A stretch of 53,190 bases of DNA, filler included, from Sphacelaria rigidula (Eukaryota), in the NCBI GenBank assembly GCA_964200075.2. It is 2 parts of 2 records of this genome, joined end to end, with 100 filler letters (N's around TTAATTAATTAA, not from the genome) between each part and the next. Parts side by side here need not be neighbours in the genome. Positions count along the whole stretch, not along the records: positions 26,659 to 53,190 come from CAXNAA020000134.1; 1 more part is not named here. One strand, 5' to 3'. This document shows, in pieces, positions 29,279 to 51,390 of the stretch (position 1 is the first letter of the stretch; the number at the start of each line of letters is the position of its first letter). Under the pieces are notes generated by a model, which worked only from the letters and a program-made list of their open reading frames with translations, did no database searches and was not told the origin of the DNA. The position numbers and the translations under genes were made by a program.

Positions 29279-29350
29279 GACCTATCTCCGGAGCGCTTGG
29301 AGATCTCGATGAGCTGAGGGTGCTGAAGCTGAACAGTAACGAGCTCACGG
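29279..29350 (+). CDS. LRR exon A (72 nt, phase 1-1): (G)PISGALGDLDELRVLKLNSNELT
   Basis: tgcag|GA...ACGG|gtaag; fits the plant-type 24-aa LRR consensus. Confidence 0.9.
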
Positions 29351-29499
29351 GTAAGAAATGATCTAATGGACAGATTTGTATTATTGAAGCTGTGCCATGC
29401 GTAGCCGAGAAGGCCAGTGTATGATGTAGAGCCGGAGGCAAGACACGATCGATCTTACGGAAATCGACAGAAGCATTGTGTTGACTTTCCTGTCTACAG

Positions 29500-29571
29500 G
29501 ACACATACCATCGCAACTTGGGAATCTCGGCGCCTTGGAGCACCTCGACCTCAGCGATAACAAGTTGAATG
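29500..29571 (+). CDS. LRR exon B (72 nt): (G)HIPSQLGNLGALEHLDLSDNKLN
   Basis: tacag|GA...AATG|gtgag; 24-aa LRR. Confidence 0.92.
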
Positions 29572-29935
29572 GTGAGTTCATAAGTTCGTACAGCGAATTC
29601 TATTTTTCCTACCGCAAATGTCTTGAAAACGGCATGTGTTCCGCGCGCGGATGTCGTTCAACACGTTGTTCGTCTCACCTGAGGATCTCATCCCTGCGTG
29701 TATTCGGTTGCAGCAGGCCTCATCCCCTCTCGAGTTAAGTGGTGAGCCTTCCCAATCGTAGATTTGAAAGCACAAGCTTTCGGTTTTCATAGAGATATGT
29801 CCTACGTGGTCCGCCTGCGCCGCTAGAATATGAAGCGAAACCCTCAATGTCGCAGGCCATTTCATCTCGTTAAAGTACTCAGCTTTTGTCGAACGTATTG
29901 CTTGTTCGCGGCTTATTTCTTGCTTTGCTGTGCAG

Positions 29936-30007
29936 GTCACATTCCCGAGGCACTCGGAGGTCTCGGGAAGCTGAAGGTACTGAAGCTGAACGGAAACGAG
30001 CTTACCG
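29936..30007 (+). CDS. LRR exon C (72 nt): (G)HIPEALGGLGKLKVLKLNGNELT
   Basis: tgcag|GT...ACCG|gtgag; 24-aa LRR. Confidence 0.92.
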
Positions 30008-30214
30008 GTGAGAGATGGTGAAAAGGATAGGTTTCTTTTCTGGAACGTGTGTCCCAACCATGCGTGAGCGAGTGGAGTGGGCCAGCACATGGTGTAGAGG
30101 CGTAGGCAGCACAACCGATTTCTCGAAATTCCGACAGCACTATCTATGCGTTGACTGCCATGTCCAATAATGTTCGTTGTCAAGGGGTAAAACCGAGTAG
30201 GAGCCACGAACAGA

Positions 30215-30606
30215 CAACTCTAAAAAATGAGGTTGTACGATGAATTGAGGTTCGAGCCCGAAACAGTGCTTTCCCCACACTTTCAGCGATAGCGCTCGAT
30301 GACTTTTTTGTCCGCTTTATGCCCCTCGATCGCGTAGATACTTCTTCAGCACAATTTACCGACTCTGTGAGCTTACAGCGCTGATAGAAACCGTCATTTC
30401 CCCTGATATTACCTCCCATTAAAAAATGAGGGAAAACGACGGTTTCAGCTTACAAAGTCGGTAAAAATGCGCTGAAAAAATACCTGCATGATCGAGGAGC
30501 ATTAGGCCGACAAAATATCCATTGAGCATCATCGCTGTAAGTGTGGGGGAAACACTGTTTCGTGCTTGAACCTCATTTCATCATACAACCTCATTTTATA
30601 AAGTTG
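30215..30606. mobile_element. Foldback/MITE element, almost fully palindromic (~390 bp)
   Basis: caactctaaaaaatgaggttgtacgatgaattgaggttcgagc...gaaaccgtcatttccc and gggaaaacgacggtttc...gcttgaacctcatttcatcatacaacctcattttataaagttg. Confidence 0.8.
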
Positions 30607-33497
30607 AGTGATGCTACGGTGGGGTACACAAATATTTACTGAGGTTAGAATTGTTAGGAGCCCTTTATCTCATTCGAAACACTACGTATGAAGATATGCG
30701 AGAGTACGCCAGGATTACTATTCCAATGTGCTGGGGATATCCCGAAAAGGTCTGCAAACGGGGATGCCTTGACCCATATTCTTTCGCGTCTAGAATCGTT
30801 AGGAGCCGCTGAACCAGACAAAACTTCGCGAAGAAAGTGCACCCCTACCGTAGCATTGCTCAGTCGTCTGTTACAAGATGTTTCATGGTGTGATGGGAGA
30901 GCAGACGGCACAAATAAAAGCTCCCTACGGCATATTCCTCCCACGTTCGCCGCTGCCTTACGAGCTGGGCCAGCCTAGGGTCGAATTTGCAGTTTGCTGG
31001 CCCATTCGCTGGCCACTACTTATAGGTGGACCCTAACATTTGACCTAAGACCACAAGGGCCATTATAAACATGTTTACGTACTTGGGAAAACCGAACTGT
31101 TTTGCTTTTACATAGGTTGCGAAATTTGGTACATGTTGCTACGCCGGGAAACCTTTGTGCAGACGCCAGTCAGTCCAGTAGAGCGACGAAAGCTAGCTAT
31201 GATAGGGTTTGCCTGCCGTACTACCGCCAGCGTTGCTTGAAAGCCACAAGACCTTTGCGGTCGGCGGTTGATGGCGCGGGTGTCAAATGCAACGACAAGT
31301 GGTTGATCATAGAGCACCCTTGTTCCTCGCGGGGTTATATCTCGTCCCAGGTTGTAGTGCGTGACCTTCTCACATCGGAATTTATTCTTGAAAGCTACTG
31401 TACCGAGGTGTTCACGCAGCCAGCGCGTGTTCTAGATTGCAGCATGGACGCACCACTCTGCACCACGCTAGCAACGGTTGGATCACTACCATAGGTATCT
31501 TTTTTCACTCCACATATCAAAAAGGTCTTCATAAGTGTTTAATCTCTCATACACCCCCCTCAACTGGCGTCTCGCACGCTCTTGTCGTTGGGCATCCAGA
31601 GGGTCATTCACGTACATGCCGGGTATAATCAACGATGCATAACACCCCCCAAGTTCAAATTTGATATATCTGTTGTTTTCGCCGCACCACCGCCCTTGCT
31701 GGCAAGTGTGTGACAGAGAGTAGTAGTAGCGGTGACGGGAACATTGCCCTATTTTTCAACGACATGGTTTTCAGCGCACAGAGGCGTGTCCTGTCCAAAA
31801 AGAGAGGCAGAGAGAAATCAATCTTCGCATTGGTGAGCTCCACAGGCAAGTAGAGACGAAAGTTGTCCGCAGCTCGATGTTCTGGCACATGGAAAACTGG
31901 GTACATGCTGGAAACATCGATGATGCCAGTTTCTCGAGCTATTGGTAATCGCCGAGCGAGGACACACACAGGACATGGGCGAGGAGCTTCGTCTCTGTCG
32001 TTGCTTCTCTCTCTGGTGATATCGTCATCGACACGCGTGTACACCGCATTCGTTCGGTGCACCTAGCCACAACTGGTTCATTGCTGCAGAGTTTTGGGGG
32101 GAAATATGGTTTCGCTTTGTGTAACTGTGTAGCATCATCCCTGCAAAAAAGATATGCTACTTGAACCTCATTTTCGAGATGGGTCCCATGTTTCAGGATC
32201 CACTGTTACGTGATGTATCTCGAATCTGTTTACAATTATTGACGTGCCTTCTCTTCCGGTTCGTGCACCTCGCGATGCACATGAAACGAATGGTCGTTCT
32301 GGTTGGAAGACACTCACTGTCAACTGCAACTGCACTTGTTGCATGCAACTACTTCCACTTTGCGATTAAAAGTGAAGCGCTCCTCGTAGATAAGTATTTC
32401 GTTTTTCACTGGGCCCAAGGGTCTGTCAAGAAAATATTTCGGGACGCGTAGGCTCCAAGATAAAAAATCTGAGTTTTTTCGGGGGGGGGGGGGAACAGCC
32501 AGCCTGCTATCCACTAGTTTATTACTGAGCGTTGGCAGATACGGTCAGCTGCCGTGTACAGATATCCTTGGCATGGAGACCGCTGAGATGACGGGCACAC
32601 CGCCCCTTCGAGTTCATCACCTACCATGATTACATCTATGGGATCACGTTCCGTGTCGTGTGCCTCGACTACCTACCGCTAGCCGGGGCAGATTCGGCGA
32701 GGCGTGATAAAATGTTGCTATTTTTGCTACAGGCTGTCGCTACCGTGCGCTCGTGTATAGTACATAGATGTTGTGTGAGTATTGCCGGCATCCGAGGTCA
32801 AGGAGAAGAAGCAAGCGCGGGTAAGGAGAAGCAAATATGCGAACCTCGCAAAGCCCGCCAGACTTTTCGGTTTTCGCTAATGTCGATCAATTTCTTTCAA
32901 CCATATAAAAAAAAAAACATGACAATCTAAAAATTGCCCTCCGGTATGGGGGGGGTGTACTCATGATCACGCATGCTATGATCATGAGTACAACGCATTT
33001 CCGTACTCCTACAGCTTCTGCAATGACAAACTATCTCCGAGTAGATTAACGTTGAACGGAGACTGGGAGAAAACAAGCAGTAGATACCCGATAGGATGCC
33101 GACGGTGAAGGACGCGGGAGGTAGGTGGGGAATGGGAAGAGATCAGTGTGCAGGCAACGCGCTGCGGTTGAGTTGTCGTTGCAACCGAAGGGGGTGGCGT
33201 TTGGAGTTTTGAGAAACAGTTGGCGGTGAAGGAGTCTCTTTTCTGGTAGTTTTGAGGCGATATTTTGGAATGTTGGGCAGCGAGACAAGGTGCACCTCGT
33301 GTGTGATGATGAAATTCCGCGAGTTAAGGATAGGTGGTGCAGCGGGTGGGTGTCGAAGCGACGAGTCCCATGTCACTAGGTAATCAGGGCGCTGTGCGGA
33401 ACTGGTGGTTATCAGTGTAACTGGGCTATTCTTTTAGCCACACCCAGTCAGTGATGACAACAATGGAGGGTACGATATCGAACCGATGAGGAGGTAG

Positions 33498-33723
33498 CTG
33501 TAATGCGTGAGAGACCCGCGTGCTTAGGGGACCGCATCGGAATTTCAAGACCCCTATGTTTGAGGTAAGGGTCAGGGTTAGGGTTAAGGATAGTGTTGGG
33601 GTTAGGGTCAAGGGCGCGGTCCCTGCAGGGGCTGGTCCGAGCGATCTTGAACAACGTCGGTCTCGGGGTGTTTTGAACTCCGATGCGGTCCACACAAGCA
33701 CACGATCCTGCCACGCATTACAG
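33498..33723. mobile_element. TIR element with internal TTAGGG-like repeats (family of 28298-28632)
   Basis: Perfect 12-bp TIR CTGTAATGCGTG ... CACGCATTACAG; interior gggtcagggttagggtt...ggggttagggtc. Confidence 0.75.
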
Positions 33724-35238
33724 GATGGTCCGACTGTCTCCATGAGGGTTGAGAGAACGTGGCTTCGATTCTTACCAGATACGCTGGGTTCTTTTCTTGG
33801 AAGTTTATGTGATTTCCACCGTCGGAAGCGGGTGTATGTGAGTAGACATGAAGTAGTTGACTAGAGTTGTTATATCGGCGGAAAAGGCCGTAGTGCGGAA
33901 GTGCTGACCCAATCCGCAAATCAAAGTGCTAGACGTCTACAAGGGAGGGATGGGTTGATTTTTTGGGACGATGGACTGTTTCCGAGAAAGAGGACGAGTT
34001 CGAAGTGCGACAAAAATGAAAATCTGCGACAGGGTTTGTATAGCATGCATTCGGGACCTCCACGAGCACTCCACTTGAGCACCGTACCGTACGTAGAGTT
34101 TGAATTGGCTTGTCAAATAATTGAGCTGTACGCCTGAGACTTCGGATTACAGGAAAACGCAAGCAGCACAGAGGGCGGTATGGTCATACTTACTTGATGA
34201 GCAACAGAGGACCACGGCGGAACATGAGGTGCAGTCCTCCTTCTCTCAATTAGCCTCTGAAGTTATTGCACTGGTTGTGACTGCACTGACGATACTGCCT
34301 GTCTTGAACTATATTACAATTCACTGAGTACGGTACATTGGTTAAGTATTCCTGCTGTAGAAGTCCATTCCCATGTGGTTTCGACAGCGATTGCCCGAGA
34401 CACGACCCCACCCTGGTACCTGCTCCGTGGCTACTACTAAAAGAGCTCCTGATGTTTGTCTCACCGCACAGTCTGGGTGGTGCGGGAAACCAATTCTCTT
34501 ATGAAAGGGTGCGACTATTCCTCACCAGCCGCATGATAATCCTTCCCTGGCTGAATGCATACTCCCGGGTGCGAGAGGAGTACTTCTTTTGAACCGACAT
34601 TTAATGCCGTAACGCAGCATGCAGGTGGCGGGATTTCATGTCCGCCGTCAAGGTCTATTCATCCAGATACGCGAAACCTTTGACGGCGGTTTCCTCTGTT
34701 GGCCGTGGGTCTATCGCAACTGTACGACAAAACGACGGGGTAAAATTATTACACCTTATCCCCACCTTGGGCCGCATGTAGGACGGGGGCCTGGATGCAA
34801 TCTCGGGTTAGTGCATGCTACTTAGCCTGCGGAATTCGCGATGAAGCGCTCCACTCAATCTAACTAGATTAGCCGAAAATTATCCACAGACCAATGCTTG
34901 AACAGTTTACTGGCGATCACGGACTATGTTCTGTAAGCTTTGCCATACACGTGATCCTCTTCCGTAATCGTGTCACGCTCATTTGGCATATCCTTCACGT
35001 CTCGAGATCTACCGGTGGTGACCATCCCCTCGTCGTTCAAACTTGGTGCATGATGTTCGCCTGACGAGGGTTGGGCCTGTCGCTGCCTGAACCTTCGTCA
35101 CCTGCAAGAGCTAAACCAGTTTGGGTCTCGTTGATTTCTTGTGAAATTGTGTCCCGTCCACGTGTAGGCGGGACACAGTTGTAGAACGGTAGGAGACATG
35201 ATGTGATTGTATACACGCTCGTTTCCAATACCATGCAG

Positions 35239-35310
35239 GCGAGATCCCATCGTCGCTCGGACAGCTTGGGAGCCTAGAAGTGCTTGACCTCGGCTTTAAC
35301 CAGCTCAACG
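35239..35310 (+). CDS. LRR cassette exon 1: GEIPSSLGQLGSLEVLDLGFNQLN
   Basis: 72 nt, atgcag|GC...G|gtgagt, phase 1-1. Confidence 0.9.
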
Positions 35311-35500
35311 GTGAGTCTGCGAAACGAATCACGGTGTGTAGGAGCAGGGGCGATATTCGAACAGCCGAGAATGGCGCCAGTTCGGATCCCGTTTGTGCTT
35401 TATGGAACTGTGTCCCGTCCACGAGTCGGCGAGACACCGTTGTAAAAACGACGGGAGAGATGATGTGATTGTATCCACGCTCGCTTCCAACACCATGCAG

Positions 35501-35572
35501 GCGAGATCCCATCGTCGCTCGGACAGCTTGAGAAGTTGCAAGAGCTTTCCCTTGGCGTAAACCATCTTGGCG
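35501..35572 (+). CDS. LRR cassette exon 2: GEIPSSLGQLEKLQELSLGVNHLG
   Basis: 72 nt, canonical splice sites. Confidence 0.9.
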
Positions 35573-35762
35573 GTGAGTCTGCGAAACGAATCATGGTGTG
35601 GGGGAGCAGGGGTGATATTCGAACAGCCGAGAATGGCGCCAGTGCGAATCCCGTTGTTGTCTTGTGGGAATGTGTCTCGTTCACGTGTCGGCGGGACACA
35701 GCTGTAGAAACGGTGGGAGACATGATGTGGTTGTATACACGCTCGTTTCCAACACCATGCAG

Positions 35763-35834
35763 GCGAGATTCCATCGTCGCTCGGGCAGCTTGGGAGCCTG
35801 GAAGCGTTTTCCTTCGGCGTAAACCAGCTCAACG
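35763..35834 (+). CDS. LRR cassette exon 3: GEIPSSLGQLGSLEAFSFGVNQLN
   Basis: 72 nt, canonical splice sites. Confidence 0.9.
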
Positions 35835-36026
35835 GTGAGTTTGCGGAGCGAATCATGGTGTGTGGGGAACCAGGGGCGATATTCGAACAGCCGAGAATGG
35901 CGCCAATTCGGATCCCGTTGGTGCTTTATGGAACTGTGTCCCGTCCACGTGTCGGCGGGACGCAGTTGTAGAAACGGTAGGAGACATGATGTGATTGTAT
36001 CCACGCTCGCTTCCAACACCATGCAG

Positions 36027-36098
36027 GCGAGATCCCGTCGTCGCTCGGACAGCTTGGGAAGTTGCAAGAGCTTGACCTCCGCGGAAACCAGCTCCACG
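36027..36098 (+). CDS. LRR cassette exon 4: GEIPSSLGQLGKLQELDLRGNQLH
   Basis: 72 nt, canonical splice sites. Confidence 0.9.
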
Positions 36099-36290
36099 GT
36101 GAGTCTGCGAAACGAATCATGGTGTGTGGGGAACCAGGGGCGATATTCGAACTACCGAGAATTGCGCTAGTCCGCGTCCCATTGGTGTCTTGCGGAACTG
36201 TGTCCCATCCACGTGTCGGCGGGACACATCTGTAGAAACGGTGGGAGACATGATGTGATTGTATACACGCTTGTTTCCAACACCATGCAG

Positions 36291-36362
36291 GCGAGATCCC
36301 GTCGTCGCTCGGACAGCTTGGGAGCCTAGAAGTGCTTGACCTCCGCACAAACCAGCTCCACG
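36291..36362 (+). CDS. LRR cassette exon 5: GEIPSSLGQLGSLEVLDLRTNQLH
   Basis: 72 nt, canonical splice sites. Confidence 0.9.
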
Positions 36363-36554
36363 GTGAGTCTGTTAAGCGAATCATGGTGTGTGGACAACCA
36401 GGGGCGACGTTTAAACTGTCGAGAATGGCGCCAATTCGGGTCACGTTGATCTCGTGTGGAACTGTGTCCCGTCCACGTGTAGGCGGGACACGGTTGTAGA
36501 AACGGTGGGAGACATGGTGTGATTGTATCCACGCTCGTTGCCAACACCATGCAG

Positions 36555-36626
36555 GCGAGATCCCATCGTCGCTCGGACAGCTTGGGAGCCTGACAGCGCT
36601 TTACCTCACCGGGAACCAGCTCCAAG
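36555..36626 (+). CDS. LRR cassette exon 6: GEIPSSLGQLGSLTALYLTGNQLQ
   Basis: 72 nt, canonical splice sites. Confidence 0.9.
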
Positions 36627-36817
36627 GTGAGTTCGCAAAGCGAATCACGGTGTGGGGGAAACAGGGACGATATTCGAAGTGCCGAGAATGGCGCCAATTC
36701 GGATCCCGTTTGTGGCTTGTGGAACTGTGTCCCGTTCACGTGTAGGCGGGACACAGTTGTAGAAACGGTGGGAGACATGATGTGATTGTATCCATGCTCG
36801 CTCCCAACACCATGCAG

Positions 36818-36889
36818 GCGAGATCCCATCGTCGCTCGGACAGCTTGGGAGCCTGCAAAAGCTTGACCTCCGCGGAAACCAGCTCCACG
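36818..36889 (+). CDS. LRR cassette exon 7: GEIPSSLGQLGSLQKLDLRGNQLH
   Basis: 72 nt, canonical splice sites. Confidence 0.9.
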
Positions 36890-37078
36890 GTGAGTCTGTG
36901 AAGCGAATCATGGTGTGTGGAGAACCAGGGGCAATTTTCAAACTACCGAGAATGGCGCCGGTTCGGGCCCCGTTGTTGTCTTGCGGAGTTGTGTCCCGTC
37001 CACGTGTAGGCGCACGGTTTTAGAAACGGTGGGAGACATGATGTGTTTGTATCCACGCTCGTTTCCAACATCATGCAG

Positions 37079-37150
37079 GCAACATCCCATCGTCGCTCGG
37101 GCAGCTTGGGAGCCTGAAAGCGCTTTACCTCAGCGGAAACCAGCTCTACG
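37079..37150 (+). CDS. LRR cassette exon 8: GNIPSSLGQLGSLKALYLSGNQLY
   Basis: 72 nt, canonical splice sites. Confidence 0.9.
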
Positions 37151-37333
37151 GTGAGTTTGCGCAACGAATCATGGTGTGTAGGGAAACAGGGGCGATATTC
37201 GAAGTGCCAAGAATGACGCCAATTCGGATCCCGTTGTTGTTCTGTGGAACTCCACGAGTCGGCGGGACACAGCTGTAGAAACGGTGGGAGACATGATGTG
37301 ATTGTATCCACGCTCGTTTCCAACACCATGCAG

Positions 37334-37405
37334 GCGAGATCCCATCGTCGCTCGGACAGCTTCAGAACCTGTACAGGCTCGACCTTCACACAAACCAGCT
37401 CAACG
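37334..37405 (+). CDS. LRR cassette exon 9: GEIPSSLGQLQNLYRLDLHTNQLN
   Basis: 72 nt, canonical splice sites. Confidence 0.9.
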
Positions 37406-37657
37406 GTGAGTCTGTGGAGCGAATCACGGTGTGTGGGGGCACGGGCGATATTCGAAGTGCCGAGAATGGCGCCGGTTCGAGTTCCGTTGGTGTCTTGCGG
37501 AACTGTGTATCGTCCACGTGTCGGCGGGACACAGCTGTAGAAACGGTGAGAGACACGATGTGAATGTATCCACGCTCGTGTCCAAGAGCATGCAGGCGAG
37601 ATCCCATCGTCGCTCGGATAGTCTAGGAACCTGCAGAGGCTTGACCTCAGCGGAAAC

Positions 37658-38877
37658 TGAAGGCCTCTCGAAGGAGGTGCTCTGGACAGAGGGGAATGCG
37701 TAATAACTCTTCCTTATAAACCTCTTACATCCTTTACTCACTCAGCACCAACCGTGCGAGCTCCACGCGAGCTTCGCCCACATCACCGAAATATGTAGAA
37801 TGCAGGTACAAAACATGAAGTGCCGTTGTTGGGGCGCACAGAACACCTCGTCTCCTATGCGCCACATCTGATGATAACATAATACCTGTCCGCCCCGTAC
37901 CTTTGATATACCGTCAACCTTCCGCGTAATGCACCCGAACTAATTCGAGTGCATGTGCACTAGGGTTCAGGTCGGCAATGTTCTAAATTCTCATAGCTCC
38001 CCTGGTCATATCATCACGCAGGAAAATCTTATTTATATCCCATTAAAGTCAAACAATTATCACAACACAAATGCCGTGAGGCTTGAAAGGTGTGGGCAAT
38101 AGTCAAGCGACAAAGGCAAGCAACAAATAAGTACGCCCCCCTAATCCTATATATCCCTTTCTCATTTTCGGCAGTTCAAGAACCCATCGAAACTCGTGCC
38201 GTGTTTCCTCCATAATCCAATCACAAGAGGATACCTCATAATTCAAGTCCAATACATCAAATAAATATAAAAACTCGCCATTTGCCATGATCTATCAAAA
38301 AGATGATGTTCTCAAATCCACCGACCCCTGACCTCTTTTGTGACCACAGAACCTGTTTGGAAACACTTGAGTTTCATGTCGAAAATCAAACTCAGATGAA
38401 AAAACTACTTCAAACTATGTTGGGATCTCGGTGACTAGAAATCGAGACTGAATCACAACAATCACACTCGAATCGAACTACGGCAACATACACGGTACAG
38501 TACAAAGTGTCATAACGCGATCACCACGTGAGATTCAGTTCATGAGCCTGAATTTTCACGCGGTTTTGATGCGCGCCAGCTGTTTTTACGCAAAATAATC
38601 CCCAACAAATCTCAAAAAGCCTAATGAAGTATGCCAATTACTGTTGCAAATCTGATCCCATTAGTCAAATCACTGCAGTCGGACAGTAAAACTATTAATG
38701 CGCTTTCATTCAAGATCGAATAATTCAAAGCCTTATCCAAAATCAAAATTGCGCAATAATGCATGAATCTACTATCAAACTGATGTGGTCGACAAGTAAA
38801 CACTTGAAATGGCCACATTCGGAGTATACTATACACCAAAACCTATCTCCGGCCTCTGCATTCTTCCATGGTCACGC

Positions 38878-38912
<35 letters not shown>

Positions 38913-41720
38913 CCCCCCCCCCCGCGACGCGGCCCGCGGAGGGGGGGGGGGGGGGGGCGGGGGGGGGNNNNNNNNNNGGAGTAATCAACCCACCAAAACC
39001 CCCCCCCCCCCCCTCCTTTCTTCCCTCGTCCCCCCCCCCCCCCCCCCCCCCCCCGGGTTCATCGGATCGGCACTGCACCCTTGCTCCACTCCATCGGCAT
39101 CGCTCCCCTGCTCCATCCCACCGCCACCGCTCCCCTGCTCCACTCCACCGCCACCGCTCCCCTGCTCCACTCCACCGCCACCGCCCCCCTCCTCCATTTC
39201 ACTGGCACCGACGACGCCACGCGTGAACATGTGTTGCCGACTGTGTTGGTGGTAGCGGCAGTGGTGTTGGCATCAGTTGCATCGGACTCGGAGTCGTTGC
39301 CGATGGCTGCGGTGGTGTCGTGAGAAATGATAGTAGCGTCGGCGCAGTAGTAGCGGGAAAAAATAGGTGTTGTGGTGCGGCGGCGGGTGGAAATGACGGT
39401 ACCGGATGCGCAGCGGTAGTAGAAATATGTCGTCGTGTCGCGGCGGTGAATATAGATGGTGGTGACGGCGGTGCAGCAGTAGCGGGAAAATATAGGTGTT
39501 GTGGCGCGGCGGCGGGCGAAAATGAAGATTGCGGCGGCGCAGACGTTGGAAGCGGCTTGGATTCTATTGCGTGAATCAGCGGCTGCGGGGATGCCGGCGG
39601 GTAGGCGACGGTACTAGTTTCACAACCCCCCCTTCCGACTCCCACGTCGCCCGACCGATGCGTCACTGTCGGAAACATTATCAACTGCGACATAAAAAAA
39701 ACGATTTTTCAGCGATCCTACCCTGCTCTTCAATAGTTCCAACTCAGCATGTGCTGTGTTCACTGTACCGTGAAGGATTTCTGTCTCTATTTCGGACATC
39801 GCAAAAAGCATACCACGCTGGATCTCATAATCCGAGGACGATCTGCGCATAGCGCCTGTTGGCATCGAACTTTGAAATTACCGTACCATACTGTATCTCT
39901 TATGTCTTATCACGTTTGCCTTGCTCAGAAAAAAATGAAGGTGATTCCCCTGACGCCATTCTCAAACTTGTCCACGCCTGTTCGAGGCGAGCTTTCTCAG
40001 CAGTGGAGGAAACAAAATAGTGCCACCCTTCGCTGGGTGAGCCAGATTGCCACATGCTCCACAATGTGGGGTGCGTTATTTTTCCAAGATAATCGTCATG
40101 AACTCGTTGAGCCTTTTCTACTGCCTCGTATTCGTGCTGCCTTTCGAACTCCTCTTCCGTCTCATGAAACACGCGAATAGGTGCCAGTACAAAAAGGGCA
40201 TCACGGCATTTCTCGATGCGGAAGTATCCACACATGTAATAGGAAGCCCCATGCGCCGGGTGCATTGTCGGGGAAGTTGTAGGCCAGTCATGACCAGTTG
40301 AGACCAGGTGTCACTTATGAAATTAATTCACACATATTTTCCCACTCACACACATACACACAGAAAAACACACGCACCGCACGCACTGAACGAAGTGAGG
40401 TAGTCAATCTTAGGGAAATCGCTCAGAAAAACGACACGTCATAATCTCATCTCTTCGCCACGCAAGAAAACATGTGCCCCCCTCAGATACCTACTGCAAC
40501 CATGACATCGGGTATACCTCAAATAAGAGAACTAAGCTCTCATTCGTATTTCCCCTGTACGTCATGATCCAATCTCAATATCCATTACCCTTGCATCCAA
40601 GCCGATGCACAGTTGTAATCCGTGAGCGTAAGTATATTCGATTAACATGTGCACGTGGAACACCCGAAACTTCGAGTTGAGACTCTCCCCTGTTGTCAAC
40701 GATTCGTCCCATGGGTGAATACTGTTGTTGCTGCGTACCCGTACAACGTTCGTGCGGCTCTTTGCCCCTGCATGTAATGATCTTACCTAGTTTCGGGAAA
40801 AACTCGTGGGTTGCTTTGACGATCTCGGTTGTTGACTGTACTAGTCTGCACAGGGTTGCTCTGCGCGCCCGTATCAAAATGTATGGTTCTCTCTCTCTCT
40901 CATACTCTGCAATCGCCTCACCATTTAGCAGCTTCTATGAGTTCCGCCTGCTTCACTTCCATGAGCCGCAACTTCTCTGTTGATATTTTTCTGTGCTTGC
41001 TTCCTTTGTGGTAGCCATTGCTTAACTGTAACTCCGCTCAAACGTATACTCAATCCCTTGTGAAATCAGGTCTATTTCCCTTGTGAGTATACAGCCGAAA
41101 ACATTCTTCGACCTTATGGTATTTGTTTTGCACATCTATCTTGTGATGTGCTTTACTGCACTAGAACGCTGAACGCGCGAGTTCTGCTGCTGTTCTGCTC
41201 AGCTGTATCAGATGCTAACTGCGTAACTTTCAAACTTCTGCTTCAAATTCTTCTCTCGTGCTCGATAGCACTAAAGATAAAACGCTCTGCGCGTGAACCT
41301 CTCTCAAGCTTAAATGCTCCCCTCTGCTTATTGACTGGAATCAGTTTTGCTTCAATCTGACCGGTGGAGCTCTTCGTATCGCTCGCGTAATGAAGGCCTC
41401 TCGAAGGAGGTGCTCTGGACAGAGGGGAATGTTTAATAACTCTTCTGCATTAACCTCTTATACCCTTTGCTCACCCAGAACCAACCGTGCAAGCTCCACG
41501 TGAGCTGCGCCCACACCACCAAAACATGTAGAGTGCAGGTACAAAACATCAAGTGCCGCTGTCGGGGCGCACAGAACACTTCGTCTCCTACGCGACACAT
41601 CTGATGATAACACAATACCTGTCCGCCCCGTACCTTTGATACATCGTCAACCTTCCACGCAATGTACCCGAACTAATTCGAGTACATGTGCACTAGGGTT
41701 CAGGTCGGCAATATTCTAAT
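37658..41720 (-). mobile_element. Non-autonomous/degenerate LTR retrotransposon (copia-like gag remnant, no recognisable pol); LTRs 37658-37993 and 41391-41720
   Basis: Direct repeats of ~330 bp, about 90% identical by manual count. The left LTR is TG...CA with a minus-strand PPT aggggagcta (37994-38003). agcggaaac is duplicated on both flanks (37649-37657, 41721-41729). Frameshifted gag-like peptides on the minus strand include GSPSEGWHYF..AEKARLEQAWTSLRMASGESP (~39930-40050) and SDYEIQRGML..AHAELE, plus a Gly-rich linker and a decayed zinc knuckle CIVYSECGHFKC (~38795-38835). Confidence 0.8.
39075..39195 (+). repeat. 27-bp tandem repeat (~4 copies; GGGGVEQGS on the minus strand) inside the LTR element
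   Basis: Repeating unit ccctgctccactccaccgccaccgctc. Confidence 0.85.
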
Positions 41721-44302
41721 AGCGGAAACCAGCTCAGCGGTGAGTCTGAGAAACGAATCATGTGTGGGGAAGAAGGGGCGATACTCGAACTCCCAAGAAT
41801 GGCGACAATTCGGGTGCCATTGGTGGCTTGTGGGACTGTCCCGTCCACGTGTAGGCGGGACACAGTTATGGGTAGGAATGGGGGCGATTTGGGGTACTAT
41901 ATTCCTGGAAAGTGCAAGGTGAACGCTATATTTCGTCAGAAGAGGTCCGTAATCCAACGAACCGTATCAACGGAAAATGCACGCGTCACCTGAAAATAAC
42001 GATCTGACTCATATGAAATGATCTTTTTTTCTAGTACATTTATTCAAGCCTGGGACTGGTCGGTGTTGAGGTGATTTTGTTCCTCCGGATAGCTCGCTCT
42101 AGATCACTAGGTGTTGGTGCACTAGCTAGTGTCCTGCTTCTGTCTGTACCACTCGGGAAGCACACGCCCTCGGGCTGCCACCACACATTCACCGTCATTG
42201 TGAAAATAACAAGACAAGAACACGAACAGCAGCAGTTGTGGCCGCCACACACCAACGTATCTGCAGCGAAAGGCATGCCTGACCTAGTGCTAGAACAAGA
42301 AAGTACCGAAACTTGGAGACCATGAGCAGCAGCGTTGTGCATGTGAAAACTACTGAGAACGATGTTGATTATTTTGGTCATGGCATGAGTGGAAGGAATC
42401 CCATCTTGTCAGTCGCTTAGGCACGATCTGGTACACTCTGTCCAGATCAACATCTTCAACGTCATTTTTTTTCTGTTTTCAAAATCTCGTACGGGACGAA
42501 GTTGGACAAACGTGACAAAAAACAATTGTGAGGACGACAGAGACGGGATGGATGGTGATAAGGGAGGGGGCAACGCTCCTCAAAAAAGTGAATTGATTAA
42601 TTACCGACTGCGCTCCTTCCCGCCCGTGTAGTGTCCCGTTTCAACAACAAGTTGGCTAAAGTCGCATAGCTCACATGTTATTTGCAGTATGTACAGGCAG
42701 TCACGTGAAACATCGTTGCTCTGCCGACCCGGTCATGCATGGCTCGTGCGTCATCGAAAATAAAACCGCTCTAGACGCCTTGGGTCCTGCCTCGAAACCG
42801 TCTGTCACGGTTCATCAGATTGCTGCATCTCTCCGACATATGCAGCACAGGGCAAGGCGTCATCCACGCGGTATCCAGTACACCCTGAAATCAATCCAAA
42901 GTGGATGACACGATGTCTTCAGCATTATTTAGGCCGTTTCTTCCGGGCCGTTTTTCCTCCATTGGTTATAGTCTGATATGGCAATAACATAATTAGCGAG
43001 GTCGGCTAATCATGCATCGACTATGCTTTTGACAGCGTTTTTTACGAAACCTGCGGACATTTGACTGATGGAACAAAGTCAAACACTTCGTGTATATACT
43101 GAATATATGAAGATCGAAAACATCAATTCCGGTCAGCTGGCATGTTCGAAAACCCTACTCGCTCGATATCACACCATACGACGGTGAGATTCACCTACCA
43201 CGATTGTAAGCATGCGAACAGCAATCGAAACGACGGTTCCCGGTTGGAAGCACCATGTTACGGACAGTTGGTATCGGCGGCCTCTGGCTTGTCCGTGCAC
43301 TAGTTCGTTTTTACTATTGCCTCAATTGCGTAGGTTACCATGATCGCTGTACACACGCTGTGCACGCATCTTCAAGTGTCGGGGAATGAACATAGAACTT
43401 AGCTACGTCAAACAAACATGCGACATACTTATTTATGTATGGTTTGACTGTGTATACTGGCTCACCGTTATCGAACAGCAAAACGTAGAATGATGACCGC
43501 AAACGGTATTCAGCACAAGGGATGATCAGTTTAACGCAGAACAGCTCATCCTGCATGTCAGGGTGTCTTGAGCACAGCTTCAGGGCGATGGTTTTCTCTT
43601 GTGTAGTAGTCTTGACTGCCTCAATACATTCACATAAGCTCGTAGCTCGTTTTGCTCACGTAGAGAGTGAACCCAAGGGGGGCGCCGGTGTTTGGTAACC
43701 ACGGCGCGCAGGGAGGCGTGTCTGTAACCGTTACAAACGGATACCCTCCCTCTCCTTTAGTTAGAATACCCATAGGTCACATCAACTAGCCGTCTGAGCC
43801 CGCCAGTCGAATAGCTGGGTTCATCCTCGTACTACCCTTCCACCATTACGCCGCGTTCCAGAACATTAGTTGGTGCAAAAAAATAACATTGGTCGAAGAT
43901 TCAAGTTGGCGCAAATCGCACGGTTTACATATTGTTTGCAGTATGTACGGGCAGTCACTTAGAACATTGTGGCTCTGCCGACCCGAGCATACATAGTGCG
44001 TAGTCTAAAGTATAAATCGCTCTTCGCGCCTTGGCTTCTCCCCTGGAACCCTCAGACACAGCAGACGGAGCTAACGTGTGACCTCACCCTCTGCAACTCA
44101 ATACATGAAGGGTACTCGCTGTTCAAAGGCGAATCTGCTCTATGTGCACAGTCGTACAGAACGAAGGAGCACCTGATGGCACGCCACAAAGTGAAATGCC
44201 GACATACACTGCTCGCCATAAGGAGAAAAACATGCAGCCCAAAACAAAGCTTGTTGAACGTCGCATAGTTTGCATCTCATTTTTATATTATTCATCCTTT
44301 TG

Positions 44303-44404
44303 GAGCCCATTGACGATTTTTGTTTTTGTGAATCGGCATCATTTTCAGTCATTTTCAAGTCAAAATCATGCCGATTCACAAAAAAGAAAAGCGTCAATGG
44401 GTTC
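44303..44404. mobile_element. ~100-120-bp hairpin MITE (second copy at 47249-47374)
   Basis: gagcccattgacg..tttgtgaatcggcat ... atgccgattcacaaa..cgtcaatgggttc. Confidence 0.75.
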
Positions 44405-44467
44405 GGTCGATAGCATATGCAGACAGTTACTAAATACATGACCACAGTCGCCAGCAGATGTAAGAAG

Positions 44468-44905
44468 ACGGGATCTTACGAACTGGGGATGGATTTTTTA
44501 CTAGGAATGAGAAACCCGGAGAAATAAAATCTTCGTATCCACACCAAATCTTCAAAATATGGTTTCATTCTTTCACCTACTGATAGCTTTTGACAACTAC
44601 TACGCGTCGAAAAAAATATAACCTCGATAACACAAATGTTGGGGTCTTCGGTGGGAAACGAATTTTGGGGAATTCTGGGTGTCCGAACGGACGCCAAAAT
44701 GGTTCCGAAATTGGTGTTTCACCTAGGACCGCAACATTTCGGAGATCGAAATCCAAATTTCTGTGGCATGTATCAGTTATCAATAGCTATTAGTAGGTGA
44801 AGAAAAAGAACCACATTTCGAAGATTTGGTGTGGATACGAATATTTTTATTCTCCGGGTCTCTCATCCCCCCAAAAAGATCCATCCCCAATTTGTAATAT
44901 CCCGT
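44468..44905. mobile_element. MITE with ~120-bp TIRs nested in the 3.8-kb element
   Basis: acgggatcttacgaactggggatggat...tcgtatccacaccaaatcttc...ttcacctact and agtaggtgaa...gaagatttggtgtggatacga...atccatccccaatttgtaatatcccgt. Confidence 0.8.
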
Positions 44906-45770
44906 GTTTAAGGCAGTGCACTCACTAAAATCGCTCTCGACGCCTTGGCTTCTGCACTTGAGTCCTGACACAAAGCAGTCGCCAGCTTTGTCTTTCTTCT
45001 GTGAACTCTCCCTCTATAATTCGACACGTGAAAGGATACTCGCTGTTCAAAGGCGAAACCGCCCTTTGTGCAGAGCCGCACAGAACAAAGCATCGCCCGG
45101 TGGCACGCAACCAAACTGCATGTCGTCACAACTACCTGCTTTCGGCAAGAAACAAACTAGCGCACCGATTTTTGGAATTTTCCATCTTCGACCTCGAAAG
45201 ACGCTACTGACCCTCAACCCAAACGTGCCGATCGCGCAACGCTTCGATCTCGGCAACAGAGCGGGGGATGGGACAGCAGTTGCTTGCGTGCGCTTCCCAC
45301 ACACCCAAGCTAGGTCTCCGAGTAAACTTTCTGCGTTCGCGCGTGATACTGAGTCGCAAAAAAACAAAAAAACTAGCATAAGATGTTATTGGCTTTGAGG
45401 GGGGGGTTCTGGTCCGCTGTTGCGACTTGACCTAAATGTGTAACCAAATTCTCTTGCTGTTGTGTGTATGCGGGGGGCTGTGGAGTGCCGTAGGCTGGCT
45501 TGCTTCCTGTGTCGAGAACCGCGCGATCTTCAATGCTGCAGCTTTCCAATACTTAACCAAGTTAATAAGTGATTATGCATGTGTTCTGTTCGTGATGGTC
45601 TCGGCACAGGTCCGACCATCTACCGACGTGTTCATTATTCCTCCGCGTTATTTTTGACTATAAATTTGGTGTAGATATTTGGTCGTAAGGGCCCCATTCC
45701 TACCCCTAAGTGGTAAGATGCTGGGAGACATGATGTGATACGATCTACGCTCGTTTCCAACACCATGCAG

Positions 45771-45842
45771 GCGAAATCCCATCATCGCTCGGACAGCTTG
45801 GGAACCTGCTTTGGCTTTACCTCCGCACAAACCGGCTCAGCG
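45771..45842 (+). CDS. LRR cassette exon 11: GEIPSSLGQLGNLLWLYLRTNRLS
   Basis: 72 nt, canonical splice sites, open frame. Confidence 0.88.
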
Positions 45843-46032
45843 GTGAGTCTGCGAAACGAATCATGGTGTGTGGGGGCACGGGCGATATTCAAACTGCCGA
45901 CCATGGCGCCAGTTCGGGTCTCGTTGGTGTCTTGTGGAACTGTGTCCCGTCCACGTGTAGGCGGGGCACAGTTGTAGAAACGGTGGATGACACGATGTGA
46001 TTGTAACCACGCTCGTTTCCAACTCCATGCAG

Positions 46033-46104
46033 GCGAAATCCCGTCGTCGCTTGGACAGCTTGAGTGCCTGGAAGTGCTAGACCTCCGCGCAAACCAGCTC
46101 AGCG
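46033..46104 (+). CDS. LRR cassette exon 12: GEIPSSLGQLECLEVLDLRANQLS
   Basis: 72 nt, canonical splice sites, open frame. Confidence 0.88.
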
Positions 46105-47248
46105 GTGAGTCTGGGAAACGAATCACGGTGTGTGGGAGCAGGGGCGATATTCGAACTACCGAGAATAATACCATACAGTATCTGGTCTACTTATAGGACG
46201 GCACAGAGGATATGGTGGGCCCCGCCTCCCTTTGAATGAAACACCGAGATACTTGGATCTGGGGCGGGCGGTTCTACCCCCTGCAGTGGGTTTTACGCCA
46301 ATGCTTTATCATCTCCGTCCCTTCATCGAGGACATCCACATTGCGAGCACAAACCTCGGAAACCTGGGACGCCGCCCAACCGAATGTGAGTCGAAAGTTA
46401 TCAGGATATCATACATCACGTGAGAGCATTTGTGGGCATGTTTTGCGTCCATGCGGACGTTTCGGAAGGCGGTTGTTGTGTTAAATTTGCCAAGATGATT
46501 CGTTTATTCGGAATTTTATTGCCGTTTAATCTCCTTCTGAAAGTAAGCCCCATATACATTTGCTCCTACAGAACAAAGGGTCCCGGAGACAAAAAGTGCA
46601 AGCCCTACCGTAGCATTGCTCTTTACCTCAGCGCAGCGGCAGTCTGGTTTTTCGTCGGGCTTGTATCTCCATTCAAGCTGCCTTTTGTGTCTGGTTCAGC
46701 CTCAGTATGAACGGAGAGATCGGGCATGATTCGGACTTCGCTGGTTACTGCGACCATCAGTGGAGCTACTCGTAGGCACTTGGTTCCTCTTTCTGATGAT
46801 CGCTCTGTTGAACACCGCACATTTATTCATCCTCACGTCTTCCATTACTTTTTTTCAGACATGTGTAAAGTGGTCATTCACACTGCTGTGATTACCGTAT
46901 GCCAAAGCTTTTGCCAGGCCAGGTGCCGTAGCTGCCGTGTCTACCGGTATGCCATGGTCAAGTAGGCTCGTCTGTTTTTCTCTCTCCAGAAAACGTCTGA
47001 CATGTTCAAAGCAATGGTGGATCTCATAAAGGGCCATGGGCGATGACACCAGAGTGCCGCCGAGCCTTTCCGCTACGTCTCCCAAGGTCCCTGTTGTGCA
47101 GTCGCATTAATTCTGTGCATGTTGCCATTTTCTTCGATTATTCGTGTAGTTATTTGATTTTGGATAATTGTTCCGGTTTTAGGATTACTCCCTTCTGATT
47201 TCCCGATATGTTTTCACTCGCGTTTCAATCATACTAGTGTCGGCGTGT

Positions 47249-47374: not shown

Positions 47375-48373
47375 GATCAAGGGCCCAACGGGAGATGTCC
47401 CAGACGTCGACCCACCCCTCCGACCTCCTTGCCGATTGTGGGTTTTTCCTGTCCGTATCGTGTTACACGAGTTGGTTGACCCCTTTAGGGTCTGCCCTAG
47501 ACGCATATCAGTGCTCTGTGCTATGGACTTCTTGCGGGGCAAGGGGATACAACAGACTGGCCTGGACTATTGTTCTATCGAGGTACTTGTGCACGGGTTT
47601 CGCGACCCTGTCTGGGTCTCTGCTGAGCGCGCATGAGTACTCGGTCTTATCCCTACACCACTGTGGTTCGGGAAGTAACAAGGAAAAATCAGCTTTTCTT
47701 TTCAGTCTGGGCACTGTTCCACGCGTCGATTGACCCACTCCGGGTCTGTGCTAGGCGTGAACTGATGCTCGGTTCTATCATGAAAGCGGCTATTGTCGGG
47801 GGGTGACGAAATACTGTCACTGCTTCTTGTTTTGTCCGGGTGTTGGCAGACCCGTTGTTTGAACCCACTGTGGGTCTGCATTAGGCGTGAACCACACTCC
47901 GGTCGTTTTTCGATGCTTTAGAAGATTCTCAAGGACCACCCTTAAAGACGCGATGCATACTCAATTTGTGAAATCCCGTGTTCCTTGTAAAACTGTCTCG
48001 GTCGACTGTTTCCCCGGCTCTGACTACTTTAATTTGCTCTGTGGCGCCAGCAGGTCGCTAGTATGCAGCGTCTAATGCTGTTGAGGGACTCCCCAGTTCC
48101 ACTGGCCTCAGGTTTCAGTTGTTAGCCTTCACAACACCTTTTATTATCCTGAAGTGCCACACAGGCACATGCTCCAGAAAACACATCAGGGTATCACCCC
48201 CGTGTCCATGTCATCATCCATATCAGCACTACATATCCCAAGTCATCATCCAATCATCACTATATACTCAACGTGACGGCTCGATTTCGTCTCAGCACCC
48301 CCAAAGCGCTTTGGACGAGAATCGAGCAACAAGCTTGACACTCGGAAAAATAACGCCAAAACGATTGAACAAG

Positions 48374-50990
48374 TCACAACTGAATAGAAAACTCACGCAT
48401 AATGCGAGCAGCAATGGAAGGAGTCACTCGCACCTTACGCAACTCTTTTTTGAGAAATTCCGGAGCGGCCTCGAAAATATTTTTAAAAGGCTCCCACGTA
48501 CGCTCCTCGGCTTCAAACCCAACCCAGTCGACCAAGACGATCAACAAACGATCCTCTGCCTTTGCCACGCGAACAATCCCAGCCACCTGAAAAAATTGCC
48601 CCTGGTTGAAGGCGTGCTGAAACACATCCTTCACGTCTGCCGTTACATAAAGCTGTGAGTCTGCATAAAACCGCAGACGAGCGACATGGGCGGTCTGAAT
48701 ACGACCAAAAACAATGTTTTCGATCTCAAACACATGCGGGTGATGAGCACCGACCACTCTTCACCGATCAGTCCACGTCGCCATCAATTTAGGATTAACT
48801 CCCGGGCGACGCACGCGTGCATACAAAACATAATCGCTTACCTCGAAATTCGGCAATCCCAGCCCCGACGAAGACCCCTCACGTCTACGCGCACGTTCAG
48901 CGGCAACACGCTCCTGCGCTCGAGCGCGGAAACTTTCCTGCAACGCCAACACTCCTTGCAACTCACGCTTCAGTTGCGCATCGTCTAAGACATCACAGTT
49001 CCACTCCCGCGCCGATGAGGACGCCAAAACCGAGAAAGACGTCCGAGGTGTACGACCAAACATCACATGTTACGGCGTACTATCGTATCGACGGCGATGT
49101 GCTGTATTTAACGCCCATCGCACCGCGGGCAACACGTCCACCCACTCTGTCACCACTCGACGCTGCTCGAGAAGAATAGATCGAAGAGCACGAAGTACTC
49201 CCTTGACCATGCGTTCGCACGTGCCTTTAGACCACGGAGAATAGGCCGCCACAAACCGGTGATCAACGTGTAATGCCTTTCGCAAGCGGGTCAAGATCGT
49301 GTTCTTGACATGCGTGGCGGTATCACTCACCCACACACTCGGCACCCTCAAAGTTTTGCATCAATTCAGCAAAGATGCAGCAATCGATTCAGCAGTACAC
49401 ACTGCTACTGGTTCCAGAGCCACGAAGTTGCTCGAATCATCCATGATTACCAAAATGTATTGAAACCCAGCATCCTCCGACAAACCTTGGGAAGCTAGGG
49501 GGCCACTCTCGCCCATGTACTACATAAAGTCAAAATGAACGACTTTATTCGGCATGGTCCCATGGACCGTTTCGCTGAGCGGGCGGGGAACAACATCGCC
49601 CGCCCTCGAGTCAGCACAGTGAACACACTGGCGGACAAATTCGCGCACATGAGTTTCTATCCCCAGCCAGACACGAACGTCTTGCAAGCACACGAGCGTC
49701 GCAGCCACACCACGATACGCGGCGTCGCGTATGTGCACGCAAATCATCAGACGTACCTGCGACTGCTTGTCAGAACTCGAAATCCACAAGACGTTCCCGC
49801 CACGCACATGCACACGAAACAGACCTTCATTGTCCAAGATAGCAGTACCAACGTCCGACTCGAAAGATCGTACATCCGTATCTCCGGCCCCAAGATCTTT
49901 CCGTTGCGCTTGGCGGACGGACAACAGATTTGGACGGCATCGAGTCATGAGGTTCACACGGATCATATACAGTCACAGCGCGCACAGGCATTTGAATTTC
50001 AAATGTCGGCACCTGCATAACCAAACTACCCCAATGGCACTCAAATGCATCCGGAGACATTGACACCTGACAATCAGGACAAGGGTGGAACAGCGTCACG
50101 GCATGAGCCACCAAATCCTTGGCTGACGCCCACGCCTGCAGCCTACCCTCCGTCCACGATGCAGCCTTCTTCGGAAACGCCATATCTAGACTGGACCACC
50201 CCGGCTGCAAATTCCGTAACGCCAACCCGAGCGCCAAAAGAGCCACCATGCACAACGCCAACCAACTCGGCTTCACTGGATCGTACCGCCGCGGCGACGC
50301 CCCAGGTTTTGGCTGAACACGCATGGGCTCCGCGCGCGCAGGAGAATCACCTCGCAGCGCACGACGAAACGCGTTGACGCGCCAATGCAATATGCCGCGC
50401 AGGCGCTCCGCTTTTGAGGAGCTGAGGCCGGTCGCCCCAGCATCCGTCACGCTCTCCTCCAGCGCGATCATTCGCGCGGCCTCCTCTTCCGCCGGCTCCA
50501 TAAACATATCAAGGCAACGCTTCACTAAGCGTTCCACCGCCTTATTACGCTCCTCGGACACCTGCCCCCCCGGCAAGCTCACTCTGCGACTGGCCAAAGA
50601 CGCAGGCGTCTCGACACTTGAACCGGGCGACGGCATTTGCGTTTTTAGCGACTCTAACAGCCAATCATACGGGTCGACTCCGAGTTTCCGAAACGTCGGT
50701 AAGCCCAACAGAACGAAACCATCCGTCCCCGGCATGATCGCAAACGATATCGGGGGTAATTTCGCTGTCCCCCAGGTCGTCCTAAACGCCAACTGTAGGG
50801 GAATCCCACGCTCCGTGACATTGACACGTTGCCCCCATGCGGTGATGGCCTGCCGCGCCCCGTGCAAGGACGAATGCGGATCTTCTCACCAAGGAGTAGA
50901 CGCTCCAGCATCTCCACAATCAGCACCGACACGCTCGTGAAATGGGCGCCTGGATCCAGCACAGCGTTGACCGATATGGCTCCCCGCGCC
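48374..50990 (-). pseudogene. pol: Frameshifted pol: protease (LDPGA), RT/RNase H remnants with RT core missing, integrase and chromodomain
   Basis: Integrase motifs H..(Y)RG...VREFVRQCVHC, VVHFDFM, WVSDTATH.KN, AYSPWSKGTCERM, W.DVLPAVRWALNT. Chromodomain VLVDWVGFEAEERTWEP. Multiple stops and frameshifts. Confidence 0.9.
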
Positions 50991-51390
50991 CCTTGATTTT
51001 AGGAGATAGAACTCTGCAGGAATATATTTTTCTTGATCCCCGACCGGCACCTGCTCCGCCGACTGATTTGTCGTGATCCCCACTTGGCGCCACGGCTGCG
51101 CTTGCGGCGCAGGCATAGACGCCCCCGCTGGGGTAAACGGCACCGCCGGCAGAATCAAATTGAAGCGGTACTCCGGCCGACGCAGCGGCGGATCCAAAGT
51201 TCAGCTGAAATCCGGCCGGCTCAGCAGCAGGCGTCTCGCCTTGCTCTGCTGCCGGCGGCGCCGGCACCGAGCCCGACTCTTGAGTGGTCGGTCCCACCTA
51301 CACCGCCCGTTGCGGAGCAGCAGTCCCTGCAGCTGAGCCGGACCCAGAACCGGACCCCTGCTGCTGCTGCTGCTGGGACCGGGAACTCGA

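Follow-up and report, generated by a model that had tools for sequence, protein, structure and literature searches.

An interrupted tandem array of one-repeat LRR exon cassettes in the brown alga Sphacelaria rigidula

Introduction

Can a run of interchangeable exons, each encoding a single leucine-rich repeat (LRR), serve a brown alga as a device for diversifying its receptors? The question is raised by a stretch of 53,190 nucleotides from the genome of Sphacelaria rigidula (assembly GCA_964200075.2), referred to in its entirety as the window. A sequence-only reading of the window described a tandem library of 12 such exon cassettes at 35117-46165, and suggested that it might generate diversity by combinatorial splicing, unequal crossover or somatic rearrangement, in the manner of lamprey variable lymphocyte receptors (VLR) or arthropod Dscam. 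Our computational analysis of this locus gives a more conventional answer. In our view the locus is probably a germline array whose cassettes carry type I LRR exons, from which the ligand-binding domain of ROCO GTPases and LRR-only genes in brown algae is built.

Type I LRR exons have the pattern GxxPxxLxxxxxLxxLxLxxNxLx, with 72 nt per exon (PMC3341825), and occur in ROCO genes, in some LRR-kinases and at dozens of LRR-only loci (PMC3341825, PMC11378527). This architecture bears on how brown algae recognise pathogens, a case that was made in 2012 and extended in 2024 (PMC3341825, PMC11378527).

Results

Twelve cassettes in three blocks

The repeat is genuine, and far stronger than chance would give: Tandem Repeats Finder reported a period of 264 bp at 35116-37657 (9.7 copies, 83% matches, score 3323). 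A blastn search of the window with one unit (35380-35643) gave 14 matches, exclusively on the + strand, with 77-89% identity and E values from 5e-07 to 1e-137; ten of these lie at 35139-37657, two at 41722-41867 and two at 45723-46166. Together with an exon profile, these results confirm the 12 units of about 263 bp that had been described: each cassette is 255-264 bp long, and all are on the + strand. Alignment and a pattern scan likewise bear out the proposed composition of the unit, a homologous intron of about 190 nt and a 72-nt phase-1 exon corresponding to one 24-aa LRR. The introns measure 183-192 nt and can be aligned end to end.

In the pattern scan, 11 of the 12 exons are intact, with 72 nt, AG before and GT after. 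These are exons 1-5 (35239-35310, 35501-35572, 35763-35834, 36027-36098 and 36291-36362), exons 6-9 (36555-36626, 36818-36889, 37079-37150 and 37334-37405) and exons 11-12 (45771-45842 and 46033-46104), all on the + strand, and each translates into a single 24-aa LRR. The first two nucleotides of an exon complete a Gly codon and its last nucleotide opens the next codon, so the introns are in phase 1 and the exons symmetric. The same codon split has been described under the label phase 2 (PMC11378527). Given the 72-nt length and this codon split, any subset or order of the exons stays in frame, as the sequence-only reading had stated. The 11 intact cassettes also fit the type I pattern, and the 12th fits it but is split and carries a stop. 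The proposed link to the one-LRR exons of Ectocarpus therefore holds.

What does not hold is the continuity of the library. While the cassettes themselves are real, about 7.9 kb of the 11-kb interval is inserted non-coding DNA, present as two insertions that leave three array blocks on the + strand. The first block (35117-37657) contains cassettes 1-9, the intron that follows and the first 62 nt of exon 10. The second (41720-41867) consists of an unassigned T at 41720, the second copy of a target duplication, the end of exon 10 and the initial 128 nt of the intron of cassette 11. The third (45722-46166) contains the end of that intron, exon 11, cassette 12 and the first 62 nt of a 13th intron.

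It should also be noted that long stop-free frames (up to 256 aa) run along the minus strand across 35111-37713. The longest of them has no Pfam family, and the frames most likely stay open simply because the array repeats every 264 bp (88 codons).

Two insertions and one broken exon

Exon 10 is split into 62 nt at 37596-37657 and 10 nt at 41730-41739 (+ strand). A profile built from the 11 intact exons matches this twelfth copy over positions 1-62 at 37596-37657 (E value 3.9e-15), and the last 19 profile positions match at 41721-41739. The AG acceptor of the exon is present at 37594-37595, and both AG and GT can be found in all 12 cassettes. Exon 10 has an in-frame TAG at 37619-37621, as well as about five changes within its first 30 nt, a stretch that is nearly invariant in the other eleven exons. 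The earlier count of 12 LRR exons is thus correct, but only 11 of them are intact.

Insertion 1 (37658-41719, + strand) lies within exon 10 and is 4,062 bp long, including a 10-N assembly gap. Its terminal direct repeats of 329 bp (37658-37986 and 41391-41719) differ at 32 of 329 positions (9.7%), and it is flanked by a 9-bp duplication, AGCGGAAAC, with copies at 37649-37657 and 41721-41729. Because the two exon halves match and the duplication is present on both sides, the join is sound. No Pfam family was found in the 8 open reading frames (ORFs) scanned within it, and we regard insertion 1 as a non-autonomous element resembling those with long terminal repeats (LTR-like), its class being uncertain. 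At 38879-39054 the 10-N gap is situated between long poly-C and poly-G runs, which may be an assembly or sequencing artefact, and a 27-bp tandem repeat follows at 39071-39210.

Insertion 2 (41868-45721, + strand, about 3.85 kb) interrupts the cassette-11 intron. Inverted repeats of 21 nt (41863-41883 and 45692-45712, 90% complementary) lie at its borders and nested palindromic repeats inside it (44303-44404 and 44465-44908), and the 5 ORFs scanned show no Pfam family. Insertion 2 is predicted to be a non-autonomous terminal inverted repeat element.

Selection on structural and variable residues

Pairwise nucleotide diversity among the cassettes is 0.146 in the introns, 0.080 in exon nucleotides 1-29 and 0.265 in the rest of the exon. 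The ratio of nonsynonymous to synonymous change (dN/dS), obtained from pairwise Nei-Gojobori counts and not from a likelihood test, is 0.16 in codons 1-10 and 0.08 in the L/N codons of the scaffold, but reaches 5.58 in the nine variable x codons. This pattern of diversity and dN/dS argues that the cassettes have been shaped as coding exons. As far as the sequence itself can indicate, the scaffold residues appear to be under purifying selection and the x positions to be diversifying.

The same division is seen in the residues of the 11 intact cassettes, counted by eye. Residues 1 and 3-10 are invariant and position 2 has changed once, while the most variable positions are 14, 15 and 24, with six kinds of residue each, and 19 and 20, with five. 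Positively selected sites in ROCO LRRs have been reported at 14, 16, 18 and 19 in a 23-residue numbering (PMC11378527), which correspond to positions 15, 17, 19 and 20 here. Three of these four (15, 19 and 20) are among the most variable positions of the array; the fourth (17) has only three kinds of residue.

Within the introns, diversity is 0.06-0.14 over the last 60 nt compared to 0.08-0.27 over most of the first 130 nt. The low diversity of the last 60 nt is as expected of a 3' splice region in use.

An old array with no recent copies

Compared in pairs, the cassette introns have identities of 0.81-0.907 (mean 0.854). The divergence of the closest pair (90.7% identical) is approximately equal to that between the terminal repeats of insertion 1. 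Neighbouring cassettes resemble each other no more closely than cassettes further apart do (lag-1 mean 0.845, permutation p = 0.96), and no higher-order repeat or neighbour effect was found among the cassettes. Since neighbours are no closer and no pair is near-identical, with intron pairs at least ~9% apart, our data argue against the ongoing unequal crossover that had been suggested for this locus.

Rearrangement, the other suggested source of change, fares no better. Of the 13 LRR exons in the window that fit the pattern, every one is on the + strand, and no unit match falls on the minus strand, whereas noncoding-strand cassettes have been described in 19 Ectocarpus ROCO loci (PMC3341825). 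Recent rearranged copies, also looked for as a sign of exon shuffling, are likewise absent from the window, no intron pair being more than 90.7% identical. We therefore see no sign of programmed DNA rearrangement in this sequence. The array looks old and static, apparently with no growth, shrinkage or homogenisation for a long time.

The two ends of the array speak to its origin. It starts at column 70 of the unit alignment (35117) and ends at column 64 (46166), so that its length departs from complete units by no more than about 5 nt. No pieces of either intron family, that of the cassettes or that of the diverged LRR exons upstream (described below), were found beyond the breakpoints. We infer that the array probably arose from a single 264-bp segment amplified in place, and is not an array cut off by later events.

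Splicing signals and intron structure

In Dscam, mutually exclusive exon choice is guided by docking/selector RNA pairing. A search of the array flanks for complements to the conserved intron elements gave two short sites (9-11 nt) downstream, which are not significant (shuffle P = 0.13), and one upstream (P = 0.82). With no significant docking element in the flanks, the suggested analogy to Dscam-like guided splicing is not supported. The analogy to VLR-like assembly fails on a different point, since all 12 cassettes have AG and GT, unlike donor cassettes, which are without splice signals. The two downstream sites (46495-46505 and 46725-46733) complement the 5' intron element with the strongest conservation, and they fall in DNA that recurs in the genome.

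Most cassette introns contain a hairpin about 60-95 nt before the acceptor; an example with a 14-bp stem is at 35932-35967 (+ strand). Folding energies are -20.9 to -27.9 kcal/mol, with z-scores of -2.8 to -6.0 in four of the five copies folded. The hairpin was considered as a conserved RNA element and rejected: the covariation term is +0.21, only 1 of 57 pairs is compensatory, diversity is not below the intron mean, and the hairpin is deleted in one or two cassettes, being absent from cassette 9. An Rfam search over 28000-53190 gave no matches.

Contigs from sequencing runs

Among sequencing runs that carry this sequence none was listed as RNA; three, from one study, are of unstated kind and probably DNA, and three others, guessed to be RNA, share hardly any of its words. 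Contigs alone, from four runs (X1, X2, X4 and X5), were aligned to 34500-46700; the RNA nature of some of these runs is a guess, and the others are probably DNA. In the guessed-RNA runs several bins of the array are uncovered, including those of exons 2 and 10, and summed depth is very high in the bins of exons 3-4 and 8. Depth in the DNA runs is raised in the same bins, which fits collapsed words common to many paralogous cassettes. In run X5, 14 contigs reaching 37083 are preceded, without an intron, by the end of another LRR exon. The preceding sequence matches none of the 12 exon ends of the array, so these contigs come from spliced paralogues. No spliced LRR-exon contig of the guessed-RNA runs could be assigned to the array locus itself.

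Two joints within the array, from 35797 to 37058 (X2) and from 37113 back to 37058 (X1), were considered as rearrangements and rejected, each being a single high-depth contig with 90% likeness. Two of the DNA runs show very high summed contig depth over parts of insertion 2, as expected of repeated DNA.

Surroundings of the array

The contig carrying the array begins at 26659, only 2.6 kb before the first LRR exon. That first exon belongs to a group of three diverged type I LRR exons upstream of the array (29279-29350, 29500-29571 and 29936-30007, + strand), each of 72 nt with AG and GT. An upstream exon matches Pfam LRR_1 at 18.4 bits, below the cut-off of 20.6. The three lie within a separate two-exon repeat (29141-29494 and 29795-30164, 67% identical), with a truncated exon-like piece near 29716-29741. 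These three may be earlier exons of the same gene as the array. The intron of an upstream exon has, at 29152-29161, a 10-nt motif in common with one arm of the cassette-intron hairpin, which hints that the upstream and cassette intron families could be distantly related.

A six-frame Pfam scan covered 58 stop-free ORFs. The 20 flanking + strand ORFs contain no Pfam family except the sub-threshold LRR_1 on the upstream exon. For the N-terminal region of about 45 residues that resembles LRRNT_2 and precedes the LRRs in ROCO proteins, there is no match of the W.G[VIL] type in a fitting context and no Pfam family above the cut-off in the 10 ORFs upstream, on a contig that starts at 26659. Downstream, the 10 + strand ORFs scanned between 46169 and 48072 match no Pfam family, and the window ends at 53190 in repeat-rich DNA. 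In ROCO genes the LRRs are followed by a ROC GTPase domain (P-loop, NKxD) and a COR domain. The + strand of the window contains no P-loop or NKxD-context motif, although ROC exons may be short. Similarly, no kinase catalytic-loop motif was found in any frame, nor any Pfam kinase in the 58 ORFs scanned.

A degenerate Ty3/gypsy chromovirus lies downstream of the array on the minus strand (48040-52839), with LTRs at 48040-48296 and 52614-52839 that are 84% identical, and Pfam matches to zf-CCHC (28.6 bits), Chromo (26.7 bits) and Integrase_H2C2 (25.4 bits). Adjoining its right LTR is a possible LRR exon relic at 52970-53022 (+ strand), a weak candidate from one regular-expression match, with a C-terminal half-repeat followed by a GT donor and in-frame stops just upstream. 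The LRR region may continue beyond the end of the window.

Other repeats bracket the upstream LRR exons. A repeated element made of ~120-bp pieces, direct and inverted, with telomere-like TTAGGG/CCCTAA runs, occurs at 28303-28859 and 33491-33700, and a 392-bp near-palindrome (30215-30606, 73% self-complementary), similar to a miniature inverted-repeat transposable element, lies just past the break of the two-exon repeat. At 26559-26658, two runs of 44 N enclose a 12-base linker of A and T only, with stops in every frame; this looks like an artificial contig join, and features on its two sides need not be neighbours. The window's other contig carries exons of the Hsp110/Hsp70 family on the + strand (15184-19629), with introns of 1.5-2.5 kb; no other conserved gene was found in the window. 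The first exon matches Pfam HSP70 at 22.3 bits, and further exons are at 17881-18036 and ~19468-19629. Among 9 matches from 98 candidates, the best named matches of the Hsp110-like exon at 17881-18036 are from Ascophyllum nodosum and Pylaiella littoralis (87%) and Ectocarpus (83-85%).

Discussion

A probable history of the array

Under the reading that we consider probable, one 264-bp segment, consisting of half an intron, an LRR exon and half an intron, would have been amplified in tandem and in place. The copies would then have diverged, with purifying selection preserving their structural residues and splice signals and diversifying selection acting on residues of the concave binding face, and with no copy made or homogenised for roughly the age of the older transposon insertion. 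One insertion would have entered exon 10, with decay of that exon following, and the other 11 cassettes look splice-competent. Exon 10 would be skipped, with 37406-45770 acting as one long intron; since every exon is symmetric, skipping it would keep the frame. The cassettes may still be expressed today, joined by ordinary, possibly alternative, splicing. By arithmetic alone the cassettes could be spliced combinatorially, as is reported for the family (PMC11378527), in which alternative splicing giving different LRR combinations has been described along with frequent pseudogenes (PMC3341825, PMC11378527).

Several points weigh against this reading. The window yielded no start exon, linker, ROC-COR or kinase domain, transposons abound around the array, and two joined contigs make up the stretch as a whole. 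The dN/dS values come from 12 related copies and from only nine x codons, and are indicative, with no formal test behind them. A protein-database search with a cassette gave, among 44 matches from 133 candidates, only plant, bacterial-looking or unnamed LRR proteins, which is weak evidence in this respect. In addition, insertion 1 has TG...AA termini and a 9-bp target duplication, both atypical for LTR retrotransposons, so its class is uncertain and with it the clock that insertion 1 provides.

The strongest competitor is that the array is a dead relic: an LRR gene fragment or pseudogene that is no longer made into protein and is decaying among transposons. We consider this clearly less likely than a germline array of usable cassettes. 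In its favour, exon 10 has a TAG and is interrupted by 4 kb of inserted DNA, a second insertion sits in the next intron, a gypsy element and other repeats lie downstream, and neither a start exon nor a signalling domain was found in the window; disruption is also reported for half of the Ectocarpus ROCO loci (PMC3341825). However, the decay is confined to cassette 10, and the missing ends may reflect the assembly, given that the contig starts so close to the first LRR exon. Where the intact exons are conserved, most of their changes are synonymous (dN/dS 0.16 and 0.08). With the divergence of the insertion-1 terminal repeats (K = 0.104, half of it per lineage) serving as a clock, neutral evolution since that insertion would be expected to give about 1.7 stops and 2.3 splice-site losses in the 11 intact exons, about four disabling changes in all. 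None is seen, and these exons keep their frame and both splice sites (P = 0.019, a value that depends on the terminal-repeat clock and becomes ~0.14 if the true time is only half as long). This lends modest support to continued constraint on the 11 intact exons since insertion 1.

Other explanations give the cassettes a role as donors. The locus could be an LRR-only reservoir without a signalling domain, an evolutionary donor of LRR exons to ROCO genes, as proposed for LRR-only and other type I loci (PMC3341825, PMC11378527). In keeping with this, the 53 kb yielded neither a motif nor a domain of a GTPase or kinase, and contigs of the DNA runs carry cassettes of the subfamily from elsewhere in the genome (e.g., a contig with 30 other letters between 36055 and 41727). 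The full splice signals and the conserved 3' end of the introns are nevertheless those of exons in use, and there has been no recent copying in the array, so we think a reservoir unlikely. Somewhat more doubtful still is a free-standing cassette bank, kept by selection as a source copied into ROCO genes, in the germline or even somatically, and absorbing transposon hits by dropping the damaged cassette.

Least probable of all, and very improbable in our view, is a somatic diversification locus, whether through VLR-like change in cassette number or order or through a Dscam-like device for mutually exclusive splicing. Symmetric exons would permit any subset or order, most introns have a strong hairpin, and somatic recombination has already been put forward for the family (PMC3341825). 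Against this, the array is static and old with no inverted cassette among 13, its cassettes are ordinary AG/GT exons unlike VLR donor cassettes, the flank complements to conserved intron elements are not significant (two short sites, P = 0.13), and the hairpin lacks covariation and is deleted in one or two cassettes. According to the 2024 paper, moreover, neither a somatic recombinant ROCO locus nor a matching recombinase is on record (PMC11378527). A search of the literature on brown-algal ROCO genes and somatic recombination gave nothing beyond Zambounis et al. 2012 and Teng et al. 2024. The VLR/Dscam analogy and the idea of somatic recombination are not new, as both are already found in these papers (PMC3341825, PMC11378527).

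What the locus does illustrate is the damage tolerance of symmetric one-repeat exons, with one cassette destroyed by a transposon and eleven intact. That the array ends in register points to in-place amplification of a single unit, and its long-unchanged state argues against constant turnover at every such locus. The question of adaptive immunity is not made newly testable by this locus.

Comparison with known systems

The likeness to lamprey VLR lies in the bank of neighbouring LRR modules, a comparison already published for the family. In VLR, lymphocytes copy the cassettes, which cannot be spliced as exons, into a germline gene that is incomplete. In contrast, the cassettes here are standard exons, with nothing suggesting copying. 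With arthropod Dscam the array has in common tandemly duplicated, alternatively usable exons, an analogy drawn in PMC11378527. It differs in having no such complementarity as guides Dscam splicing, and in that LRR cassettes are additive, not exclusive.

The closest likeness is to the brown-algal ROCO (LRR-ROC-COR) arrays (Zambounis et al. 2012, PMC3341825; Teng et al. 2024, PMC11378527), whose 72-nt exons, single 24-aa LRR and codon split are as found here. These arrays also have repeated homologous introns, variable concave-face residues with signs of diversifying selection, and pseudo-exons inside the array. The S. rigidula array differs from those described in that no ROC-COR was found in the window and there are no noncoding-strand cassettes and no sign of recent shuffling. 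It also has a transposon inside an exon, whereas the authors of the 2012 paper saw no role for transposons in shuffling (PMC3341825). LRR-only loci with 'shuffling' LRR exons, of which 46 (non-ROCO and non-kinase) are described in Ectocarpus and 15 in Saccharina japonica as a possible reservoir, have type I exons without a nearby domain, as in the window. An LRR-only locus is the simplest match to the window content, although the contig is cut and other domains may lie outside it. In either case, the array is an ordinary further case of the known type I LRR exon arrays.

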